A stretch of DNA of 64,000 bases from a bacterium (GTDB taxonomy: Bacteria > Zhuqueibacterota > Zhuqueibacteria > Residuimicrobiales > Krinioviventaceae): contig CAXXMD010000003.1 of assembly GCA_963675755.2 (NCBI GenBank), positions 2,496,001-2,560,000 on the forward strand. Direction: 5' to 3'. How positions within the stretch are numbered: the first letter of the stretch is position 1; each line of letters begins with the position of its first letter. The notes beneath the pieces were generated by a model. That model made no database searches, had not been told where the DNA came from, and saw nothing but the letters and a program-made list of their open reading frames with translations. Positions 2,358 through 33,271 of the stretch are shown here, piece after piece. A program made the position numbers and the translations under genes.

Positions 2358-3164
2358 ATGAAGATTAGATTAGTCATTTTTTTATTTTTTGTCGCCACAA
2401 CATTTGCACATGCCAGAGATAGTTTATTTGGTAATTACGAAATGATCGAATTCGATTTCAAGGGGCACGATGCTAAAATCGTAATTCCGAATGAACCTGA
2501 CAGTAATGGATACTGGATATGGAGGGCCCGTTTTTGGGGACACGAACCGCAGCTTGATATTCAATTGCTCGAACGCGGATTCCATGTTGCTTTTGTTGAT
2601 GTCGGCGGAATGTTTGGCAGTCCCGAGGCGGTAGCGTTGTGGAGCGAGTTTTATGAGTTTGTCACCCAAAAATATAATTTGAATACCCGGGTTGTGTTGG
2701 AGGGTATGAGTAGAGGAGGTTTAATTGTTTACAATTGGGCATCTCAAAATACGGATAAAGTGTTTTGTATTTATGCTGATGCTCCTGTGTGTGATATAAA
2801 AAGCTGGCCGGGGGGATTGTTCAAGGGACAGGGGAGTCCTGCGGATTGGCAGCAATGTTTAGCCGCCTATAATTTGAATCAGGAATCTGTTTTAACTTTT
2901 GAGGGGAATCCTGTTTCGACGTGCGTTCATGTTGCACGGGCTCATATTCCGGTAATCCATGTTTGCGGTGATTCAGACAAGGTTGTTCCCTATAAGGAAA
3001 ATACAGAAATTCTGGCCGATAAATTTAGGGAAGCTGGTGGAACTATCGAAATTATTTTAAAGCCGGGAGTTGGCCATCATCCGCATTCGCTAGAGGACCC
3101 CAAGCCAATTGTAGATTTTATCTTGAATAGTATCCAAAAAAGGGAATCAGGAATTTTGGATTAA
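2358..3164 (+). CDS. Secreted alpha/beta hydrolase (esterase/S9-like)
   Basis: Signal peptide, GMSRGG nucleophile elbow, GDSDKVVP Asp and GHHPH His. Confidence 0.8.
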   Translation: MKIRLVIFLFFVATTFAHARDSLFGNYEMIEFDFKGHDAKIVIPNEPDSNGYWIWRARFWGHEPQLDIQLLERGFHVAFVDVGGMFGSPEAVALWSEFYEFVTQKYNLNTRVVLEGMSRGGLIVYNWASQNTDKVFCIYADAPVCDIKSWPGGLFKGQGSPADWQQCLAAYNLNQESVLTFEGNPVSTCVHVARAHIPVIHVCGDSDKVVPYKENTEILADKFREAGGTIEIILKPGVGHHPHSLEDPKPIVDFILNSIQKRESGILD

Positions 3165-3203
3165 AATTATGCAGGGTTGTGGGCTGTTAACTTACGGCTT
3201 TGT

Positions 3204-3337
3204 GATCGCCAGGAAATCCTTCAGCCAGGGGATGCCTGGTGGAACATTTCACAGGACATTTGTCCTGATGTCTCGGACTACGTATGGGACGAATGTTCCA
3301 GGATAATGTCCTGCGATGCAGGAATCTGCATCGCGAT
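3204..3337. repeat. Intergenic multi-hairpin element rich in CAGG(A)...CCTG
   Basis: Hairpins at 3225-3239, 3252-3267, 3299-3313 and 3313-3334, plus the pair TGGAACATT (3240)/AATGTTCCA (3292). Confidence 0.55.
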
Positions 3338-3454
3338 TAAGTTTGATAACGCAATTCCGGCTACCCTTTATCCCAAAATGTAAATAAATCCGGGTGAAAA
3401 CCTGTTGCTTCCCACCATAAATTTCTGTATTTTAGCATCTTGAACGAGATTATT

Positions 3455-4186
3455 ATGCCGAAATCGACTGATCAACATATTGACAATACAGCCAAAGCCG
3501 AAAGCTGGCGCATGTTTGACCGCATATCCGGGCGGTACGATCTGCTCAATCGGCTGCTGTCCCTGCGTATCGACAAGAGCTGGCGCAAACGCATGATCTG
3601 TCATCTGCCACAGCGAGCAGGACTCACCGTTATGGATGCCGCTACAGGTACTGGAGATGTTTTACTGACCCTGGCACAAAGCGCATTTGTAAGACGAGGA
3701 ATTGGCATAGACCCGGCGCAGGAAATGCTTGCCGTAGGTCGTGAAAAAATTGCAAAACTAGAACTGACAGACAGTCTCACCCTGCTGCCAGCGAATGCGC
3801 TCGATCTGCCGGTCAAAGACAATGGCGTGGATGTGGTGACCATTTCTTTTGGCATTCGAAATGTTCCGGATGTGCCGCGCGCACTGCAAGAGATGCATCG
3901 GGTGCTGAATGAAAAGGGCAGGCTGATGGTGCTCGAGTTTTCGCTGCCCGGCAACAAAATTATACGGAATATGTATCTGCTCTATTTTCGTTATATATTA
4001 CCGAAAATCGGTGCGTGGATTTCCGGTGATGCCGGCGCGTACGGCTATTTGAATAAATCGGTTGAAGATTTTCCATATGGCAATGCATTTGCAAAACTGT
4101 TGTTTGAAGCAGGATTTTACAAGGTCTCTGTTAACCCCCTGACCCTGGGCATTGCAACTTTATATATTGCTGATAAAAAGAAATAA
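3455..4186 (+). CDS. menG: Demethylmenaquinone methyltransferase (UbiE/MenG)
   Basis: MFDRIS.RYDLLN, DAATGTGD SAM motif and FGIRNV; first gene of the men operon. ATG 3455 preferred over TTG 3440. Confidence 0.9.
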   Translation: MPKSTDQHIDNTAKAESWRMFDRISGRYDLLNRLLSLRIDKSWRKRMICHLPQRAGLTVMDAATGTGDVLLTLAQSAFVRRGIGIDPAQEMLAVGREKIAKLELTDSLTLLPANALDLPVKDNGVDVVTISFGIRNVPDVPRALQEMHRVLNEKGRLMVLEFSLPGNKIIRNMYLLYFRYILPKIGAWISGDAGAYGYLNKSVEDFPYGNAFAKLLFEAGFYKVSVNPLTLGIATLYIADKKK

Positions 4187-4198
4187 GCAGAGGATTTT

Positions 4199-5557
4199 TT
4201 GACTACCTTTGATGCCCTGAAACAAAACATTTCGGTTGAATTGAAAGAACGGTGCCATGCTCACCGTGCGGTTCCCGGTTCCGAGAATACCTTGCAGCGT
4301 ATTGAGTTGCAGGTGCAGGAAGCGGACCTGATTCTCTGGTTAAAAAATCAGAATTTTCCCCAAAAAACATACTGGTCTGAACGAGATGGCCGGCTGAAAA
4401 TGGCAGGTGTGGGTGCTGCCCATATTTTTCAAGGCAATACAAACGAATATACCGAGGTTTTTGAAGAACTGGACCGCCTGCTAAAGGGTGCGGATGAAGA
4501 TGTTCGTTATTATGGCGGCTTGAAATTTGATCCCGATCATGCGGTATCTGAACTGTGGCAGCGGTTTAAACGCTATTATTTTATTGTGCCCCGGTTCGAG
4601 CTGTTAAAGCGCGATCTGCACTATTATTTTGCTCTCAATTATGTAGTAGACCTTGAAGAACCCCAGCTTGATGAAATTCTGGCAGACCTGCAAAAACTTG
4701 ATTTTTCTTTTTATAAAGATACAAAAGAACTGCCCGCCTATACTGATTTGGCAATGGACCCGATAAAGTCCACCTGGGATCGCAATGTTCAGCAGGCGTT
4801 GACATTGATCGAGAACGGGACTTTGCAAAAGATTGTGCTGTCAGGGCGGTCAACCCTTACCTTTGACGAAACCATCAATCCTTCTCTGCTTTTTGAAAAG
4901 CTGATTGGTCAGAACTCGAACTCTTTTCATTTCTGCATTCAACCCGATGCGGAAACTGCGTTTATGGGTATTACGCCTGAGCGGCTTTATCGTCGTGAGG
5001 GGCGCGAAATATGGAGCGAGGCCATTGCCGGTACACGTCCCCGTGGTCGTGACGAAGCAGAAGATGAGGCGCTGGAAAAAGACCTGCAATCCTCAGACAA
5101 GGACATTCGTGAGCACCGCTGGGTGAGTGATATGGTGCGTTCGGGACTGGGACCCTTGTGCCGATACATTAACGATGTGGATCGTGAACGTATTCTCAAA
5201 CTGCGCCATGTTCAGCATCTGCAAAGCCTGTTTATTGGAGTCTTGCGCGACGGGATCTGCGATGGCGAGATTATTTCTCACTTGCACCCAACTCCGGCAG
5301 TAGGCGGATTCCCCAATACCATATCCATTCCCTATATTTCCGAGATTGAAGGATTTGATCGCGGCTGGTACGCGGGACCGATAGGTTGGGTAAGTCGTGA
5401 TGCCGCAGGTTTTGCTGTGGGTATCCGCTCGGGCCTAGTGAATGGCAATAAACTGACAATTTTTGCGGGTTCGGGGATTGTTGAGGGAAGTGATCCGGAT
5501 AAGGAATGGGAAGAAAATCAGACTAAAATATTAAATTTTACAAAACTCTTTCAGTGA
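4199..5557 (+). CDS. menF: Isochorismate synthase
   Basis: Chorismate-binding motifs TPERL, AIAGT, LHPTPAVGG and DRGWYAGP; operon context. Confidence 0.9.
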   Translation: MTTFDALKQNISVELKERCHAHRAVPGSENTLQRIELQVQEADLILWLKNQNFPQKTYWSERDGRLKMAGVGAAHIFQGNTNEYTEVFEELDRLLKGADEDVRYYGGLKFDPDHAVSELWQRFKRYYFIVPRFELLKRDLHYYFALNYVVDLEEPQLDEILADLQKLDFSFYKDTKELPAYTDLAMDPIKSTWDRNVQQALTLIENGTLQKIVLSGRSTLTFDETINPSLLFEKLIGQNSNSFHFCIQPDAETAFMGITPERLYRREGREIWSEAIAGTRPRGRDEAEDEALEKDLQSSDKDIREHRWVSDMVRSGLGPLCRYINDVDRERILKLRHVQHLQSLFIGVLRDGICDGEIISHLHPTPAVGGFPNTISIPYISEIEGFDRGWYAGPIGWVSRDAAGFAVGIRSGLVNGNKLTIFAGSGIVEGSDPDKEWEENQTKILNFTKLFQ

Positions 5558-5558
5558 T

Positions 5559-7310
5559 ATGGGAATTGGCTTAGAAAACATAAACGCGCTGTGGGCGTCA
5601 TTGATTATAGAAGAACTGGTGCGTAACGGCATTGAATATGCCTGCGTTTCACCGGGCTCACGCTCCACCCCTCTTACCATTGCCGCGGCACGTAACGGGA
5701 AATTGAAAAAACGTATCTGCTATGACGAACGCGGTGCCGCGTATCATGCATTGGGGTACGCCCGTGCAACCGGCAAACCCGCTCTGTTAATCTGTACTTC
5801 CGGTACTGCGGCGGCCAATTATTATCCTGCCATTGTGGAAGCAAGCATGGACCATGTGCCCATGATCATCCTGAGCGCTGACCGTCCGCCCGAACTGCTG
5901 GATACCGGTGCAAACCAGACCATCCATCAGCAGGGTATGTATGGAAAATATGTGCGCTGGCAGTACGAACTGCCTTGTCCGGATGAGAATCTTGATCCGC
6001 GTATGGTACTCACCACTGTGGACCAGCTACTGCATCAGGCAACCGGTGACAATCCGGGTCCTGTGCATCTCAATAACATGTACCGCGAGCCTCTGGCCCT
6101 GAAAACTGAAAAAGTGGATGATGCCTGTGTGCAACAACTCACCGACTGGATGGTGAACGGAACGTGTGCCTATACGGATTATGCCCAACCGGTTAAACAG
6201 CTTGATTTATCTACTGTTAAACGGATCTCCGAACTGGTAAATAACGCCAAAAGCGGAGTGATAATTGCCGGGCGTATGCAGGGTATGGATGATATTGCTG
6301 CAGTACGAAAACTGGCAAAGCATTTAAAATGGCCGGTCTTTGCCGATATTTTATCCGGCAACCGCATACAGCAGGAAAACACCATCTCTTTTTATGACCA
6401 GATGTTGGGAATCGATGAAGTAACAGAGGAATTGAATCCGGATGTAGTACTGCATTTTGGAGGACAATCTGTTTCCAAGAGATTACTGCAGTTTATTGAA
6501 ACCAAAACACCGCACTATTATATTCATACAGCCGGGTACACAGAGCGAATTGATCCTGCGCACCGGGTAACGCATCGTTTAAATGCGGATATTGCTTCCG
6601 TATGTGCGGCTTTGAAATCTCACACCTCTGCGGGGAACGCGGAAATTACCGCATTGGAGAAATTAAACGCCAAAGCATTACTGGCCGTGAACGAAATTCT
6701 GGATGAAACCCATAAAATGACCGAGCCGGGAATTGCCCGCGCTACTGCATCCGGATTACCGGAAAACTGGGGTCTGTATCTGGCGAGCAGCATGCCCATA
6801 CGGGATATGGATATGTTTGTAAAGTCACTGCCGGATAATGTGCGCATTGCCGGAAATCGTGGTGCCAGCGGAATTGACGGTACTGTTGCCTCTGCCGCAG
6901 GTTTTGCGGAAGGATTGGGAAAGCCGGTAGTGTTGATGATAGGTGATCTGGCCCTGATCCATGATATGAACTCTCTGGATGTGGTGAAAAAAGGTGCACA
7001 GCCCCTGGTATTGGTGGTGATTAACAATAAAAGTGGTGGTATTTTCCACTTTTTGCCAGTATCACAGCACAAAAAGGTGTTTGAACCCTGGTTCACAACC
7101 CCACACAACTATGCATTTGAACCGCTGGCGCGACAGTTTAATATACCCTATATGAAATGTGAAACCCTTGAAATGTTCAAGCAAGAGTTGGGCAAAGCCA
7201 CACAGAATAAACAAACCATTATTCTTGAAATTGCAACCCGTGCGGAAGAAAACCACCGGTTTCATCAGGACATCCTGGAGAGGATCCGGGAAGTTATCAA
7301 ATACCGGTAA
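5559..7310 (+). CDS. menD: SEPHCHC synthase (ThDP-dependent)
   Basis: SPGSRSTPL, DER.AA, GANQTI, NRGASGIDG and GD...NN ThDP motif. Confidence 0.95.
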   Translation: MGIGLENINALWASLIIEELVRNGIEYACVSPGSRSTPLTIAAARNGKLKKRICYDERGAAYHALGYARATGKPALLICTSGTAAANYYPAIVEASMDHVPMIILSADRPPELLDTGANQTIHQQGMYGKYVRWQYELPCPDENLDPRMVLTTVDQLLHQATGDNPGPVHLNNMYREPLALKTEKVDDACVQQLTDWMVNGTCAYTDYAQPVKQLDLSTVKRISELVNNAKSGVIIAGRMQGMDDIAAVRKLAKHLKWPVFADILSGNRIQQENTISFYDQMLGIDEVTEELNPDVVLHFGGQSVSKRLLQFIETKTPHYYIHTAGYTERIDPAHRVTHRLNADIASVCAALKSHTSAGNAEITALEKLNAKALLAVNEILDETHKMTEPGIARATASGLPENWGLYLASSMPIRDMDMFVKSLPDNVRIAGNRGASGIDGTVASAAGFAEGLGKPVVLMIGDLALIHDMNSLDVVKKGAQPLVLVVINNKSGGIFHFLPVSQHKKVFEPWFTTPHNYAFEPLARQFNIPYMKCETLEMFKQELGKATQNKQTIILEIATRAEENHRFHQDILERIREVIKYR

Positions 7311-27997: not shown

Positions 27998-28609
27998 ATG
28001 CTGCATTTCTTTGGAATGAAACCGGATTCCGGTTGTCTAAATGTTGAAGGGCGAGTTATAGAAAAGACTGACGCACAATTATTGCGTGAGGCGCGCGAGG
28101 GAAGTGGTGATTCTTTTAAGGAGCTGGTAAGGAGGTACGAGTCCCGTGTAGCCGCGACCGTAGTGGGAATGCTGGGACGATGTCCTGAAGCAGATGACGT
28201 AGGTCAGGAAACGTTTATCCGGTTCTACAAAGCCATGCATGATTTTCGTGGCGATGCGGAATTGGGAACGTATTTGACACGGATCGCCATTAATTTGTCA
28301 TTGAACGAGTTGAAAAGGAGAAAACGCCGGTTTCAGGTGTTTCCCAAATCTACAGATTCAGTGCATGACATGACAGATGACAGCATAAATCCTGATGCAG
28401 GTGATACCAAAGCAGTGATCAACAAGGCTTTGCAAAAACTGGAACCGGATTTTAGATCTGTTGTTGTACTACGGCTTATTCAGGGATATTCCACTAAAGA
28501 AGCTGCAGGAATGTTGAATATTCCCGAAGGTACGGTACTGTCACGGTTGTCCCGTGCGCAATTGAAATTAAAGAAAATACTCGAACCCTTAATGGGAGAG
28601 CAAGAATGA
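27998..28609 (+). CDS. ECF (sigma-70 group 4) RNA polymerase sigma factor
   Basis: Region 2 (ADDVGQETF, YLTRIAIN) and region 4 HTH (EAAGMLNIPEGTVLSRLSRA); true start probably near 28058. Confidence 0.92.
   Translation: MLHFFGMKPDSGCLNVEGRVIEKTDAQLLREAREGSGDSFKELVRRYESRVAATVVGMLGRCPEADDVGQETFIRFYKAMHDFRGDAELGTYLTRIAINLSLNELKRRKRRFQVFPKSTDSVHDMTDDSINPDAGDTKAVINKALQKLEPDFRSVVVLRLIQGYSTKEAAGMLNIPEGTVLSRLSRAQLKLKKILEPLMGEQE
28013..28040 (+). promoter_or_regulatory. Putative autoregulatory ECF promoter
   Basis: GGAATG-N14-TTGTCTAA; repeated at 29714-29742. Confidence 0.65.
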
Positions 28610-29610: not shown

Positions 29611-29713
29611 TATTAAAAAAATATTTACGTTTTTCTGCGTTATTGCCCTAACCTCTTGTTTATCTTGTAAAATATGTGTGAAAATTTCAATGTATTTCTC
29701 TATTACGCTTTTG

Positions 29714-29742
29714 GGAATGTTACTGAATCTGGTATTGTCTAA
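29714..29742 (+). promoter_or_regulatory. Putative ECF promoter of the repeat-protein gene
   Basis: GGAATG-N15-TTGTCTAA. Confidence 0.65.
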
Positions 29743-29799: not shown

Positions 29800-31290
29800 A
29801 TGAAGAAAAGAAATTTTATTTACAAGACGGTAACTATAATATTTTTATTCGGGCTTGTATTTTTATGGGAAGAGATTCTATTGGCACAGCCTGGTGTTGG
29901 AATGGGACATGGCGACGACAAAGGAATGCATGCCCCGTTTTTTGAATTACTCACAGATGACCAGCAAGCGGAAATACAATCGCTTGTTGAAGCCATGCGT
30001 GAAGCGGGCAGTGACCGAGAAGCCGTTCGTGAGGCGGTTGACGCAAAATTGGATGAATGGGGCATTGAACGCCCTGAGCCCCCTGAAGGTGGCGGGCCTG
30101 GCATGCATGGCGGTCCCTTTGCGGATCTGACAGAAGAACAGCGCACAGAAATTAAGACACTCGTTGAAACCCTGCGCGAAGCGGGCAGTGACCTTCAAGC
30201 TGTTCGTGAGGCTGTGGATGCCAAACTGGAAGAATGGGGCATTGAACGCCCGGAACCCCCTGAAGGTGGCGGCCCTGGCCTGCATGGCGGTCCATTTGCG
30301 GATCTGACAGAAGAACAACGTACCGAACTTGAGACCCTGGTTGAAACCCTGCGCGAAGCGGGCAGTGACCGTAAAGCAGTTCGTGAGGCTGTGGATGCCA
30401 AACTGGAAGAATGGGGCATTGAACGCCCGGAACCCCCTGAAGATGGCGGCCCTGGCATGCATGGCGGTCCCTTTGCGGATCTGACAGAAGAACAGCGTAC
30501 CGAACTCGAGACCCTTGTTGAAACCCTGCGTGAATCGGGCAGCGACCGTGAGGCCGTTCGAGAAGCTGTAAATAATAAGCTGGAAGAATGGGGTATTGAA
30601 CTACCCGAACCTCCGGAAGGCGGAAGACATGGTGGCCCCGGTAAACACGGAATGCCTTTTAAAGATTTGTTAACCGATGAACAACAAGCAGAGCTGGAGA
30701 CAATGGTCAGCAGCATGAGAGATGCTGACAGCAGTCGTGACGAGATCCACGAGGCTATCGAAACCAAGCTGGAGGAATGGGGTATAGAAATCCCGGAAAA
30801 ACCAGATCAGGATATACATGACGCCATGAAGGAATTGACAACGGAACAACGGAAACAGGTCCATGAACTGGTCAAAGATATGCATGAACAGGGAGCGGAA
30901 CGTGAAGAAATTCAGGAAGCAGTCAAGAGTCTGTTAGAATCGTTTGGGATAGAGATTGGTGACAGTTCTGAATCCAGTGAATCGGAAATCGAAACCCAAA
31001 ACCATTATGGAAGTACAATACTGGCGGCAAGTAATTTCCCCAATCCTTTTAATCCGGAAACCCGGATCAGTTTTGAACTGGGTAAGGCTGCAAGAGTACA
31101 AGTATCTGTTTATAACGTCAAAGGCCAGTTGGTAAATACCTTGATGGATGAGTACCGTAATGAAGGGACTTGCCAGGTGCAATGGAACGGAACACTGGGA
31201 AATGGTGATTCTGCACCATCGGGTATGTATTTTTTTAAAATTAATGCCGGTGGTGAAACATTAACCGAAAGAATGTTGTTAATGAAATAG
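29800..31290 (+). CDS. Secreted acidic helical-repeat protein with C-terminal FlgD-Ig/T9SS-like sorting domain
   Basis: Signal peptide, six LTxxQ-containing units and C-terminal NFPNPFNPET...SGMYF. Confidence 0.85.
   Translation: MKKRNFIYKTVTIIFLFGLVFLWEEILLAQPGVGMGHGDDKGMHAPFFELLTDDQQAEIQSLVEAMREAGSDREAVREAVDAKLDEWGIERPEPPEGGGPGMHGGPFADLTEEQRTEIKTLVETLREAGSDLQAVREAVDAKLEEWGIERPEPPEGGGPGLHGGPFADLTEEQRTELETLVETLREAGSDRKAVREAVDAKLEEWGIERPEPPEDGGPGMHGGPFADLTEEQRTELETLVETLRESGSDREAVREAVNNKLEEWGIELPEPPEGGRHGGPGKHGMPFKDLLTDEQQAELETMVSSMRDADSSRDEIHEAIETKLEEWGIEIPEKPDQDIHDAMKELTTEQRKQVHELVKDMHEQGAEREEIQEAVKSLLESFGIEIGDSSESSESEIETQNHYGSTILAASNFPNPFNPETRISFELGKAARVQVSVYNVKGQLVNTLMDEYRNEGTCQVQWNGTLGNGDSAPSGMYFFKINAGGETLTERMLLMK
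29935..30650 (+). repeat. Intragenic 177-bp tandem repeat (4 close copies; 2 diverged copies extend to about 30950)
   Basis: GAAGCGGGCAGTGACC at 30001, 30178 and 30355, with a variant at 30532. Confidence 0.92.
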
Positions 31291-31347: not shown

Positions 31348-32217
31348 ATGAAAACAAAATTGATTATGCTCTATACTGGTTTACTCACGTTAATGTTTTT
31401 GGGTTGCAAGTCTACCACATATGAATGTTACGAGTTGAACAGCAAAATAACGATTAATGGCAATAACGCTGACTGGGAAAAAATACCCCAGTTGTATGAT
31501 GAGGATAATGAAACGGTATTTGCATTTGCTAAAAACGATTCATTTGTATTTGTGATGATCAGCTTTAACAATGAAAGCATGGTCCGCAAATTTACCATGG
31601 GCGGTGGTGGAATCTGGTGGAGTGCTGATGGTAAAAAAGAAGAAGCGTTTGGGTTGTTCTATCCTCCTGTAACTCCGGTAGCCATGGGAGAACAGGGACA
31701 ACGACCGCAGATGGAGCGTAATTCAGACACAAATCAGTCACGCCCGGGTGAGAAACGAGGTGGTGGTATGATGCAGGATGTTCCCTGGAATTTGATAACC
31801 CCCCGTTTTGTAAACAATACAACCGGTCAGGAGAAAAGTTGGAGTGAAGAACCTTTTGTGGCTACGGCAGGTGCTCAGGACAAAACAGGTGTATGTTTTG
31901 AATTCAAGATCCCGTCATCAGAGATATCCGAAAATGGAATTGATCTGGCCGCCAAAGAATTTTATGTGGGTCTGGAAATTACCGGTGTTGAAATGGAATC
32001 CATGGGCAGACCCGAAGGCGGTCCTGGTGGTGGAATGGGTGGAGGCCCTGGTGGTGGTGGTATGGGCGGACCTCCCGGAGGTGGAGGAGGCGGCCGTGGT
32101 GGTATGAGTGGTGGACCGGGAGGAGGCCCTGGTGGTGGCCCCGGTGCTTCTCAGGATAGTGATATATCTAAAGACACGAAAGCATGGTTTAAACTGATAA
32201 ATACAATAGCTCAATAA
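31348..32217 (+). CDS. Lipoprotein with DOMON/CBM9-like start and Gly/Pro/Met-rich tail
   Basis: Lipobox FLGC, ITINGNNADW and a GGPGGGMGG low-complexity block. Confidence 0.75.
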   Translation: MKTKLIMLYTGLLTLMFLGCKSTTYECYELNSKITINGNNADWEKIPQLYDEDNETVFAFAKNDSFVFVMISFNNESMVRKFTMGGGGIWWSADGKKEEAFGLFYPPVTPVAMGEQGQRPQMERNSDTNQSRPGEKRGGGMMQDVPWNLITPRFVNNTTGQEKSWSEEPFVATAGAQDKTGVCFEFKIPSSEISENGIDLAAKEFYVGLEITGVEMESMGRPEGGPGGGMGGGPGGGGMGGPPGGGGGGRGGMSGGPGGGPGGGPGASQDSDISKDTKAWFKLINTIAQ

Positions 32218-32277
32218 TAATACAATTCATATCTAAAAAATGAATTGTAAAGGATTGTAAAATTCTGGAAATGATGG

Positions 32278-32301
32278 GAACATATTTTTAACTTATACGT
32301 T
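32278..32301 (+). promoter_or_regulatory. ECF-type promoter of sRNA unit 1
   Basis: (G)GAAC-N16-CGTT. Confidence 0.65.
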
Positions 32302-32307
32302 TAAGTA

Positions 32308-32374
32308 ATTAACAACCTTTACCCAGGTTAATAGTAGAAGGACAGTTGCCCTACCCAGCGGCTGTCCTTTTTTT
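32308..32374 (+). ncRNA. Candidate small RNA unit 1 (two UACCC-loop hairpins)
   Basis: AACCT-ttaccc-AGGTT, then AAGGACAGTTGC-cctaccca-GCGGCTGTCCTT plus T-run; 5' end approximate. Confidence 0.65.
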
Positions 32375-32435
32375 GATGATTTTTGGCTGAATTGTTGTTT
32401 TTTTTTAATTTTTTTGAAAATTAATGGTTTTTTTA

Positions 32436-32459
32436 GAACTTTTTTGCATATAATACGTT
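32436..32459 (+). promoter_or_regulatory. ECF-type promoter of sRNA unit 2
   Basis: GAAC-N16-CGTT, same spacing as unit 1. Confidence 0.65.
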
Positions 32460-32465
32460 GTCTAT

Positions 32466-32536
32466 AAAACAACCCCTTTACCCGGGTTGATAGCAGAAGG
32501 ACAGTTGCAACTACCCAGCGGCTGTCCTTTATTTTT
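32466..32536 (+). ncRNA. Candidate small RNA unit 2 (paralog of unit 1)
   Basis: CAACCC-ctttaccc-GGGTTG and an identical terminator stem with loop aactaccca. Confidence 0.65.
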
Positions 32537-32555
32537 ATTAAATGTGAAATAAAAT

Positions 32556-32579
32556 GAACTTTTTTATAAATACCGGGTT
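32556..32579 (+). promoter_or_regulatory. ECF-type promoter of sRNA unit 3
   Basis: GAAC-N16-GGTT. Confidence 0.5.
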
Positions 32580-32584
32580 GAATT

Positions 32585-32655
32585 AATATACCCTCCATTA
32601 TTCCTTTTATAGTCAAAAGGGCGGTTGCTTTAATTAGACAACTGCCCTTTTTTTT
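32585..32655 (+). ncRNA. Candidate small RNA unit 3 (anti-Shine-Dalgarno 5' region plus terminator)
   Basis: UACCCUCCAUUAUU 5' region; AAGGGCGGTTG/CAACTGCCCTT stem plus T-run, related to the stem in units 1 and 2. Confidence 0.55.
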
Positions 32656-32728
32656 ATGGGATTAATTGGATATGCTCACCTGTTTTATCATTTATTATCT
32701 GAAAATAAATAATAATCTGGAGGGTAAC

Positions 32729-33271
32729 ATGAAGAGAATTATATTGGGTGTTGTATTGGCATCTATTGCCTCATTTGCGTGGGGCGCATTTTACTGGATG
32801 GGTCCGTTGAGCGCTAACGCGTTCAATATTCAACCGGATGATAACAAACTTCGTACTGCATTAAAAGAAGCTTTGCCGGAAAGCGGAACGTTTTTCGTTC
32901 CAAATCCCAATATGGCCCAGGCCGACCATGCAAAGCTGCATGAAGAGGGACCCATCGCTATGATCCACTTTGTCCGCGACGGTAAACCGTCAAATATGGG
33001 CGCGTTTATGGGATTGGGATTTTTGATAAATATGGCCCTGGCTGCTTTCCTTGCCGTTTTGTTGAAAATTGGAGCTCCCCGGTTGTCCGGTTATGGTAAG
33101 CGGGTTGGTTTTGTTGCACTGATTGGCCTGGCAGCTTCCGTGTTCACCCGGATTGGTGGTGGTGTTTGGTGGTATCACAATGCAACATGGGTATCCGTTA
33201 TGTTCTTTTATGATTTGACTGTTTATATTGTGATCGGGCTGGTTTTGGCGAAATTTGTCAAGGCTGAATAA
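32729..33271 (+). CDS. Hypothetical four-TM membrane protein
   Basis: GGAGGG RBS before ATG 32729; four hydrophobic segments. Confidence 0.8.
   Translation: MKRIILGVVLASIASFAWGAFYWMGPLSANAFNIQPDDNKLRTALKEALPESGTFFVPNPNMAQADHAKLHEEGPIAMIHFVRDGKPSNMGAFMGLGFLINMALAAFLAVLLKIGAPRLSGYGKRVGFVALIGLAASVFTRIGGGVWWYHNATWVSVMFFYDLTVYIVIGLVLAKFVKAE

Follow-up and report, generated by a model that had tools for sequence, protein, structure and literature searches.

A tandem array of three short units, each made of a promoter motif, a small RNA (sRNA) and an intrinsic terminator, lies at 32278-32655 on the plus strand of the 64,000-nucleotide window analysed here (C3:2496001-2560000 of the source genome, G000; bare position numbers are those of the window). 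We read the units as independent sRNAs of ~70 nt that would depend on a sigma factor of the extracytoplasmic function (ECF) type, and we predict that two of them, units 1 and 2, repress the translation of a SusC-like receptor by pairing with its Shine-Dalgarno region. We give this reading a probability of about 0.55. The three units likely represent a real but narrow RNA family that is undescribed. The source genome comprises 6.48 Mb in three contigs, is 98% complete and has 39-40% G+C, and the type IX secretion (T9SS) sorting domains present in neighbouring window proteins fit the FCB group.

Unit 1 (32278-32374) opens with GAAC-N16-CGTT at 32278..32301 (in a wider reading, GGGAAC-N15-ACGTTTAA). 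Its RNA of ~70 nt (32305..32374) contains a first hairpin at 32314-32329 with the loop UUACCC, a linker, and a terminator hairpin at 32338-32369 with the loop CCUACCCA, followed by a U-run. Unit 2 (32436-32536) has the same build, with the promoter motif AGAACTTTTTT...CGTT (again GAAC-N16-CGTT) at 32436..32459 and an RNA at 32463..32536 in which hairpin 1 (32470-32489, loop CUUUACCC), the linker AUAGCAGAAGGA, the terminator hairpin (32497-32529, loop AACUACCCA) and a U-rich tail succeed each other. Unit 3 (32556-32655) carries GAAC-N16-GGTT at 32556..32579, and its RNA (32583..32655) consists of an unpaired C/U-rich 5' part, which includes UACCCUCCA at 32589-32597, a strong terminator hairpin and eight U. 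All these features are on the plus strand, and none of the three units contains an AUG.

Folding of the plus strand gave -24.5, -27.6 and -20.8 kcal/mol for units 1, 2 and 3 (z -4.6, -5.5 and -5.7), values equalled by none of 200 shuffles; the corresponding minus-strand folds have z of -2.4, -1.7 and -2.3. Units 1 and 2 fold as two hairpins and unit 3 as the terminator hairpin only. In all three, GC-rich stems of 12-13 bp followed by T-runs have the form of intrinsic terminators. A simple terminator scan missed them, since its rules do not admit bulged stems or loops as long as theirs (8-9 nt), but they are visible in the folds and T-runs. The pentamer UACCC occupies four of the four loops of units 1 and 2, while in unit 3 it lies in the unpaired 5' strand (32589-32593). 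Loops and linker are identical between the paralogous units 1 and 2, and the stem of hairpin 1 differs by a pair swap, AACCU/AGGUU in unit 1 versus AACCC/GGGUU in unit 2 (U-A/C-G). Several stem pairs are G.U, which form only in the plus-strand RNA. An earlier note on this DNA, written from the sequence alone, had already described three consecutive promoter-RNA-terminator units with GAAC-N16-(C/G)GTT at 32278, 32436 and 32556, the first two being two-hairpin paralogs with UACCC in four loops and an apparent compensatory change in the first stem. Each part of this description holds, the distance between the promoter boxes being exactly 16 nt in every unit.

In the window, GAAC-N16-SGTT occurs six times, compared with 3.24 +/- 1.94 in shuffled sequences (12 of 100 shuffles reach six), and three of the six matches are clustered on the same strand in a stretch of 378 nt. 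The whole genome contains 395 matches, of which 37 fall outside open reading frames (ORFs) of at least 110 aa; in 18 cases both TACCC and five consecutive T come within the next 110 nt, and among these, read by eye, only units 1-3 look like promoter, hairpin and terminator.

The congener G001 retains the three units, their boxes and their spacings. The RNA bodies are 86-93% identical between the two genomes, compared with 36% and 74% for the spacers, which also differ by a 41-nt indel, so that the divergence of the DNA between units claimed in the earlier note is real. Unit 1 is identical at 67 of 70 positions, leaving aside an 8-nt insertion after the T-run, and both of its promoter boxes are kept at the same distance although the letters between them have changed. 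The RNA of unit 2 is 93% identical and its promoter region agrees at 24 of 27 positions; for unit 3 the RNA is 86% identical, with GAAC and GGTT retained. In the terminator stem of unit 2, G001 shows changes from U.G to C-G and from G-C to G.U, which preserve pairing on the plus strand only. A minus-strand ORF at 32293-32616 (107 aa) was rejected as a gene: it is antisense to all units and suffers the 8- and 41-nt indels in the congener.

Conservation extends to a second genus of the same family. Genome G017 keeps the gene order sigma factor, 144-aa protein, 155-aa protein, LTXXQ protein, glycine-rich protein, RNA, 183-aa membrane protein, TerB-DnaJ protein and aldo-keto reductase, and at the syntenic site it has one unit with GGGAAC-N16-CGTT, a hairpin and a terminator with the loop CCUUACCCU, built on different stems. 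Among the metagenome loci compared with the array site (L062, L063, L064 and L065), L063 and L064 have GGGAAC-N16-TGTT, then GUACCUUUUACC or GUACCUUUGACC, then a terminator. What is common across lineages is the promoter, ACC(C/U)UU(U/G)AC and the terminator, and not UACCC itself, the motif that the earlier note had seen in all three units. The note's view of the units as a sibling family with ECF-type promoters is supported: G001, G017, L063 and L064 all keep both motif and unit. Compared over seven sequences, the terminator helix reaches 97.6% pairing, and both sides are changed in 5 of 12 pairs; its covariation score was reached by none of 500 shuffles, and slid registers are 27-67% paired. 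Ten loci encode a homologue of the glycine-rich protein found upstream of the array, and G017 is the only one of them with a unit. L065 (31% identity) has no unit, and the contig of L062 contains only 139 nt of upstream DNA.

The family matches no known one, as the earlier note had surmised. Rfam 15 returned no match at gathering cut-offs over the whole window, and at loose thresholds the best matches within 32150-32750 had at most 21.8 bits against cut-offs of 50-100; the RsaE/RoxS model (RF01820) scored 15.9 bits against a cut-off of 79 (E 5.6), and with unit 3 only. A covariance model built from units 1 and 2 (R1) was searched in 61 genomes, and its strong matches were confined to these two units in G000 and G001. 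The three best of its other matches, in G011, G004 and G040, are plain terminators behind genes, and further weak ones were found in G017:C10, G051 and G057 (E 0.06-0.09). A wider model (R2), built without unit 3 and searched in 151 genomes of the phylum, matched three times in G000, twice in G001 and once in G017, and it picked up unit 3 with 40.1 bits (E 4.5e-4) although this unit is not in the model; the weak R2 matches in G089 and G132 proved to be plain terminators that lack a GAAC box. Units 1-3 are not a dispersed repeat, which the earlier note had named as an observation that would speak against them. A literature search on small RNAs of the uncultured phylum KSB1 found no relevant publication, and one on sibling sRNAs with an ECF sigma factor found nothing on units 1-3.

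The predicted target emerged from a BLAST of the array against its own genome, which gave a weak match of unit 2 at C3:255769-255803, with a corresponding place in G001. The match falls in the leader of an oppositely oriented gene, and the mRNA of this gene is therefore complementary to unit 2. The gene (G000:C3:252413-255766, minus strand) encodes a protein of 1117 aa with CarboxypepD_reg, Plug and TonB beta-barrel domains, by which it is classed as a SusC-like TonB-dependent outer-membrane receptor; it lies 2.27 Mb from the array and is followed by two genes that have no Pfam family. The receptor leader reads UGGGUAG, 10 nt, UCCUUCUGCUAU, UAAUUA, GGGUAAAGGAGG, 7 nt, AUG, and bears GGGUAAAGG on the ribosome site. 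It is complementary, in order, to loop 2 (CUACCCA), the linker AUAGCAGAAGGA and loop 1 (CCUUUACCC) of units 1 and 2, and the arm between the contacts pairs through G.U, to a total of ~31 bp with two mismatches plus 7-8 bp. The first hairpin of the leader exposes AGGGUAG in its loop.

This complementarity stands out from the genome. In a screen of 4918 start regions (-90 to +21), taken from a rough gene finder, RNAduplex ranked the receptor first for both units, with -62.0 for unit 1 (next -50.2) and -64.5 for unit 2 (next -55.7). Of 300 dinucleotide shuffles made for each unit, one (unit 1) and none (unit 2) attained the local alignment score of 21. When the cost of opening the structures was included, cofolding predicted binding of -25.7 (unit 1) and -25.3 kcal/mol (unit 2). 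Random start regions, 700 in number, averaged -2.7 and -2.55 (sd 2.1 and 1.8) and went no lower than -14.6 and -11.7, and the runners-up among the top 45 candidates reached -11.1 and -12.9. Three copies of GGGUA are found in only 4 of the 4918 start regions. The receptor leader of G001 has the same letters wherever it is complementary and differs only further upstream. The in-silico prediction is accordingly that units 1 and 2 pair with the start region of an outer-membrane protein.

Secondary targets, namely a CarboxypepD_reg-type protein and two exported repeat proteins, were discarded, as their binding of -10 to -13 kcal/mol falls inside the random range. The two exported repeat proteins (813 and 362 aa, at G000:C3:3472742 and 3475306, plus strand) have GGGUA leaders, one with three GGGUA, and the predicted binding of the units to these leaders is moderate (-7 to -13 kcal/mol). 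Units 1 and 2 are no outliers either on the start region of the gene adjacent to the array, where 61 and 382 of 800 random regions bind equally.

Unit 3, which the earlier note had grouped with the other two, is of a different kind: the first hairpin is missing and UACCC is unpaired. The ribosome-binding region of the downstream gene, UGGAGGGUA (32718..32726, plus strand), is in G000 and G001 a perfect complement of UACCCUCCA of unit 3. Acting in trans, unit 3 would bind this start region with -15.5 kcal/mol, which 7 of 800 random regions reach (top 1%). In a read-through fold of 32583-32745, UACCCUCCA pairs with UGGAGGGUA at minimum energy (z -4.0; G001, z -6.8). Since a conserved promoter-like motif follows its terminator, we read unit 3 as a separate RNA rather than a leader. 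GGAGGGUA occurs at 14 ribosome sites in the genome. The general pairing with ribosome sites proposed in the earlier note found no backing here, as the genes with a GGAGGGUA site are not significantly enriched for signal-peptide-like N-termini (10/14 versus 265/537, p = 0.08). The 537 genes of the comparison have a perfect GGAGG placed 4-10 nt ahead of the start, and 265 of them (49%) show such an N-terminus when judged by a rough hydrophobicity criterion, so that strong ribosome sites may favour exported proteins.

Which sigma factor reads the promoters is a separate question, and the motifs point away from the adjacent ECF sigma gene, listed from ATG 27998, which the earlier note had proposed as driver. 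A motif GGAAT-N15-TTGTCTAA lies at 28013..28040 on the plus strand, inside that ORF. It is kept in G001 and G017, reading TTGTCAAA before the sigma gene of the latter, and the same motif type (GGGAAT-N16-TTGTCTAA, 29713..29742, plus strand) precedes the LTXXQ/Spy-like gene and is conserved before its G017 homologue. Most simply, the GGAAT-type motif would be the adjacent sigma's own promoter type. It has AAT and GTC in five of five sites, whereas the sRNA promoters, from five sources, have AAC and GTT in nine of nine. The gene probably does not begin at ATG 27998: the congener G001 has ATA in its place, and the gene's own promoter motif comes only after it. An ATA codon at 28058-28060, preceded by GAAGGG, is shared by G000, G001 and G017, with the conserved (E/T)KTD(A/Q)QL behind it. 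As no canonical start codon is conserved behind the motif among these three genomes, a non-canonical start seems possible.

G000 contains 27 genes of the sigma-70 family, and in the 450 nt upstream of two of them GAAC-N16-CGTT occurs exactly. In one case (C3:1278194) the motif overlaps the beginning of the ORF itself; in the other it precedes a paralogous ECF sigma gene at G000:C2:841215. This gene belongs to a second ECF module (G000:C2:841165-842608; L052 1666-3109), laid out like the window cluster, with a 190-aa ECF sigma factor, a 132-aa protein and a 135-aa protein, the last two of which have no NCBIfam family. AGAACTTTT-N12-CGTT stands before the paralogous sigma gene in five of five genomes (G000, G001, G017, and G014 and G005, two genomes from G017's own genus). 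The adjacent and paralogous sigma factors are 29% identical, and both score above the NCBIfam cut-off of the ECF superfamily. Because AAC and GTT are common to the sRNA promoters and the paralogue's conserved self-promoter, the paralogue appears the more likely driver. Two resemblances weaken this choice: the opening letters of unit 1 and of the G017 unit, GGGAAC, are like those of the local GGGAAT type, and TTGTTTA of L063 and L064 differs by a single base from the local TTGTCTAA. Other intergenic GAAC-N16-CGTT sites were seen before two genes like those of HlyD-type efflux adaptors, a gene for a small beta-barrel-like protein, and TonB-receptor-like, sigma-54 activator-like and ABC ATPase-like genes, all named from their translations. 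These sites may make up a regulon under the same sigma factor.

We propose the following sequence of events. Envelope stress would release an ECF sigma factor, on motif grounds more likely the paralogue, which would fire the three promoters, and the sRNAs would stop at their own terminators. Units 1 and 2 would then dock on the receptor leader through the loop and linker contacts and extend to ~31 bp including G.U pairs. The duplex would block ribosome entry and could also expose the mRNA to double-strand RNases, so that less of an abundant outer-membrane protein would be made. Unit 3 would act through UACCCUCCA, which is unpaired, at GGAGGGUA-type ribosome sites, including that of the adjacent membrane-protein gene. 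Hfq (PF17209) had no match in G000, which is 98% complete, although the control genomes did match, and the pairing would therefore be Hfq-independent. The earlier note had seen in the array the repressive arm of an ECF response: for repression there is now an in-silico candidate, the SusC-like receptor, while the adjacent sigma factor is probably not the driver.

Several points weigh against our reading. The promoters of units 1-3 are called by motif alone, and the window-wide count of GAAC-N16-SGTT is by itself not significant. The family is narrow, being found in 3 of 151 genomes of the phylum by a covariance-model search of the kind suggested in the earlier note. The covariation stands on about three independent lineages, the terminator loops of L063 and L064 lack UACCC, and G014 and G005 have at the site a plain terminator and no unit. 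As for the target, the G017 RNA had no convincing one, either by BLAST of the G017 genome or in the leaders of 12 receptor paralogues, so that the receptor is backed in one genus only; G000 and G001 are too close for sRNA-target covariation to show, and RNAduplex and cofolding disregard kinetics and proteins. The long complementarity could also be a relic of an inverted duplication and not a working interaction.

This last point can be turned into a more far-reaching proposal, which we regard as tentative and on the unlikely side: the array would be a KSB1-specific regulator born from an inverted duplication of the receptor leader, its contact at three sites (loop, linker, loop) would grow into a ~40-bp duplex without Hfq, and it would cross-wire two paralogous ECF modules, with genes located at the cluster of one sigma factor and fired by the other. 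A different view of the same array, to which we give a low probability, makes the units cis-acting parts of mRNAs, unit 1 being the 3' end of the glycine-rich protein mRNA and unit 3 a leader or attenuator of the downstream gene. The upstream gene has indeed no terminator of its own before unit 1, the pairing of UACCCUCCA with UGGAGGGUA in the read-through fold encloses the terminator hairpin, the 73 nt from unit 3 to the ATG are 86% conserved, and, read by eye, CCUACCA-like stretches lie near the ribosome sites in the L062-L064 leaders of the homologous gene. However, each unit has its own conserved promoter motif, the terminator of unit 3 is strong (a 13-bp hairpin and eight U), and a separate promoter-like motif, conserved in six loci, comes after its stop. 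Control in cis would also leave unexplained why units 1 and 2 are complementary to a gene 2.27 Mb away.

The odds are slim that the RNAs work as decoys, titrating an RNA-binding protein for which the UACCC loops would be the site. GGA loops of RsmY and RsmZ bind CsrA in this manner, and as the motif here is not GGA, CsrA would be an unlikely partner. A decoy would fit the recurrence of one pentamer in all four loops of a sibling pair and the tandem multiplication of the genes. G000 encodes CsrA and one RNA-binding protein of the RNA recognition motif (RRM) type, and no Hfq was found. In Bacteroides, the RRM protein RbpB binds the paralogous FopS sRNAs (PMC11697453). Yet UACCC is gone from the loop in L063 and L064, and the leader complementarity spans the linker and, through G.U, the stems, which would be superfluous for a protein site. 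Slimmer still is the chance that the array has no function of its own and is a stack of terminators with promoter-like words that arose by chance in a spacer rich in AT, or else an inverted copy of the receptor leader that is now decaying. The motif count and the narrow distribution noted above agree with such an origin, as does the plus strand of the receptor leader, which by eye resembles a degenerate unit devoid of promoter and GC stems. Decay, however, has struck the spacers while RNA bodies and boxes were kept; the paralogues hold loops and linker identical, and in a second genus and two metagenome contigs the unit persists with other stems and compensatory pairs. We prefer to see units 1-3 as likely independent, ECF-dependent sRNAs.

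The array is flanked upstream by the gene for the glycine-rich, lipoprotein-like protein (31348..32217, plus strand). In G014 and G005 (L041, L042) the plain terminator at this site, GGACGATTG...CAATCGTCC, resembles the unit terminator stems GGACAGTTGC and GGGCGGTTGC, and the units may have arisen from the terminator of the glycine-rich protein gene. Further upstream, at 29800-31290 on the plus strand, lies the gene for the LTXXQ/Spy-like, T9SS-tailed protein (Pfam LTXXQ, Metal_resist and Por_Secre_tail). Its ORF is shorter in G001 (378 versus 496 aa), and ~3.7 kb separate the LTXXQ and glycine-rich protein genes there (L034, G001:C1:505500-512600, ~2400-6150); this stretch has four ORFs of 275, 271, 292 and 309 aa and may be an insertion. 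Downstream of unit 3, the gene at 32729..33271 (plus strand) encodes a 180-aa membrane protein that neither Pfam nor NCBIfam assigns to a family. This gene serves as syntenic anchor for the sRNA locus and has homologues in 3 of 41 relatives and in four metagenome contigs. Its candidate own promoter, read by eye as GGGAT-N17-CTGTTTTA at 32658..32687 on the plus strand, is located 3' of the unit 3 terminator. GG(G/A)AT-N17-nTGTT precedes the gene in six loci (the window, G001, G017, L062, L063 and L064) and may be its ECF-type promoter.

If our reading is true, the E. coli logic in which an envelope-stress sigma factor cuts outer-membrane protein through sRNAs would also operate in a deep uncultured branch of the FCB group, and the Bacteroides style of silencing SusC-like proteins by paralogous sRNAs would occur in KSB1 with unrelated sequences and without Hfq. 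The array offers a testable pair, an sRNA and one outstanding target (~31 bp), together with two candidate sigma factors.

By the tests run, units 1-3 are related to none of the systems compared here, and the likenesses are of build and mode of action. OmrA and OmrB of Enterobacterales are adjacent paralogous sRNAs that repress TonB-dependent receptors (cirA, fecA, fepA), controlled by OmpR, dependent on Hfq and pairing through a 5' seed, and MicA, RybB and MicL are likewise Hfq-dependent, while no Hfq was found in G000. The array shares with OmrA/OmrB the adjacent paralogous genes and, as predicted, the TonB-dependent receptor target, with unrelated sequences. MicA, RybB and MicL of enterobacteria are driven by sigmaE and lower the synthesis of outer-membrane proteins (PMC4102768). 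The array would similarly be the repressive arm of an ECF envelope-stress response, here by prediction, but the sequences are unrelated and our units stand in tandem where the enterobacterial sRNAs are single genes. In RNAIII and other UCCC-loop sRNAs of Staphylococcus, C-rich loops start the pairing with G-rich ribosome sites, at times by several loops contacting the same mRNA (PMC4615179). The array has such C-rich loops in common with RNAIII/RsaE; motif and phylum differ.

The cuckoo or CcsR1-4 RNAs of Alphaproteobacteria have two to four adjacent hairpins with CCUCCUCCC in each loop and variable stems. They are cut by RNase E from the 3' untranslated region of one mRNA, made from one RpoHI/HII promoter next to a DUF1127 gene (PMC4615179, PMC8034643). 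Tandem siblings, two hairpins with a repeated C-rich, anti-Shine-Dalgarno-like loop motif, a conserved neighbourhood and, by prediction, control by a stress sigma factor are found here too. However, our loops are UUACCC, CUUUACCC, CCUACCCA and AACUACCCA, with UACCC or CCUUUACC as motif instead of CCUCCUCCC, each unit has its own promoter motif and terminator, and the phylum is different. The flanking proteins of the array have no Pfam family, and no DUF1127 gene, the neighbour typical of cuckoo/CcsR, stands beside it. The FopS sRNAs of Bacteroides thetaiotaomicron, which include GibS, are paralogous and dispersed over 14 loci with a housekeeping sigma promoter; in an organism without Hfq, they associate with the RRM protein RbpB, are tied to membrane-assaulting stress and repress translation of SusC-like transporters with a 5' seed that pairs next to the start codon (PMC11697453). 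Units 1-3 resemble them as multicopy siblings from the same superphylum, in a genome with one RRM gene and no Hfq found, and in their predicted SusC-like target; they differ in being tandem, in their ECF-type motifs, and in their predicted pairing through loops and linker over ~31 bp rather than through a 5' seed. This comparison concerns mode of action only, Rfam giving no likeness. In summary, judged by analogy, MicA, RybB and MicL come closest in logic and cuckoo/CcsR in anatomy, and FopS is the closest working analogue of the array.

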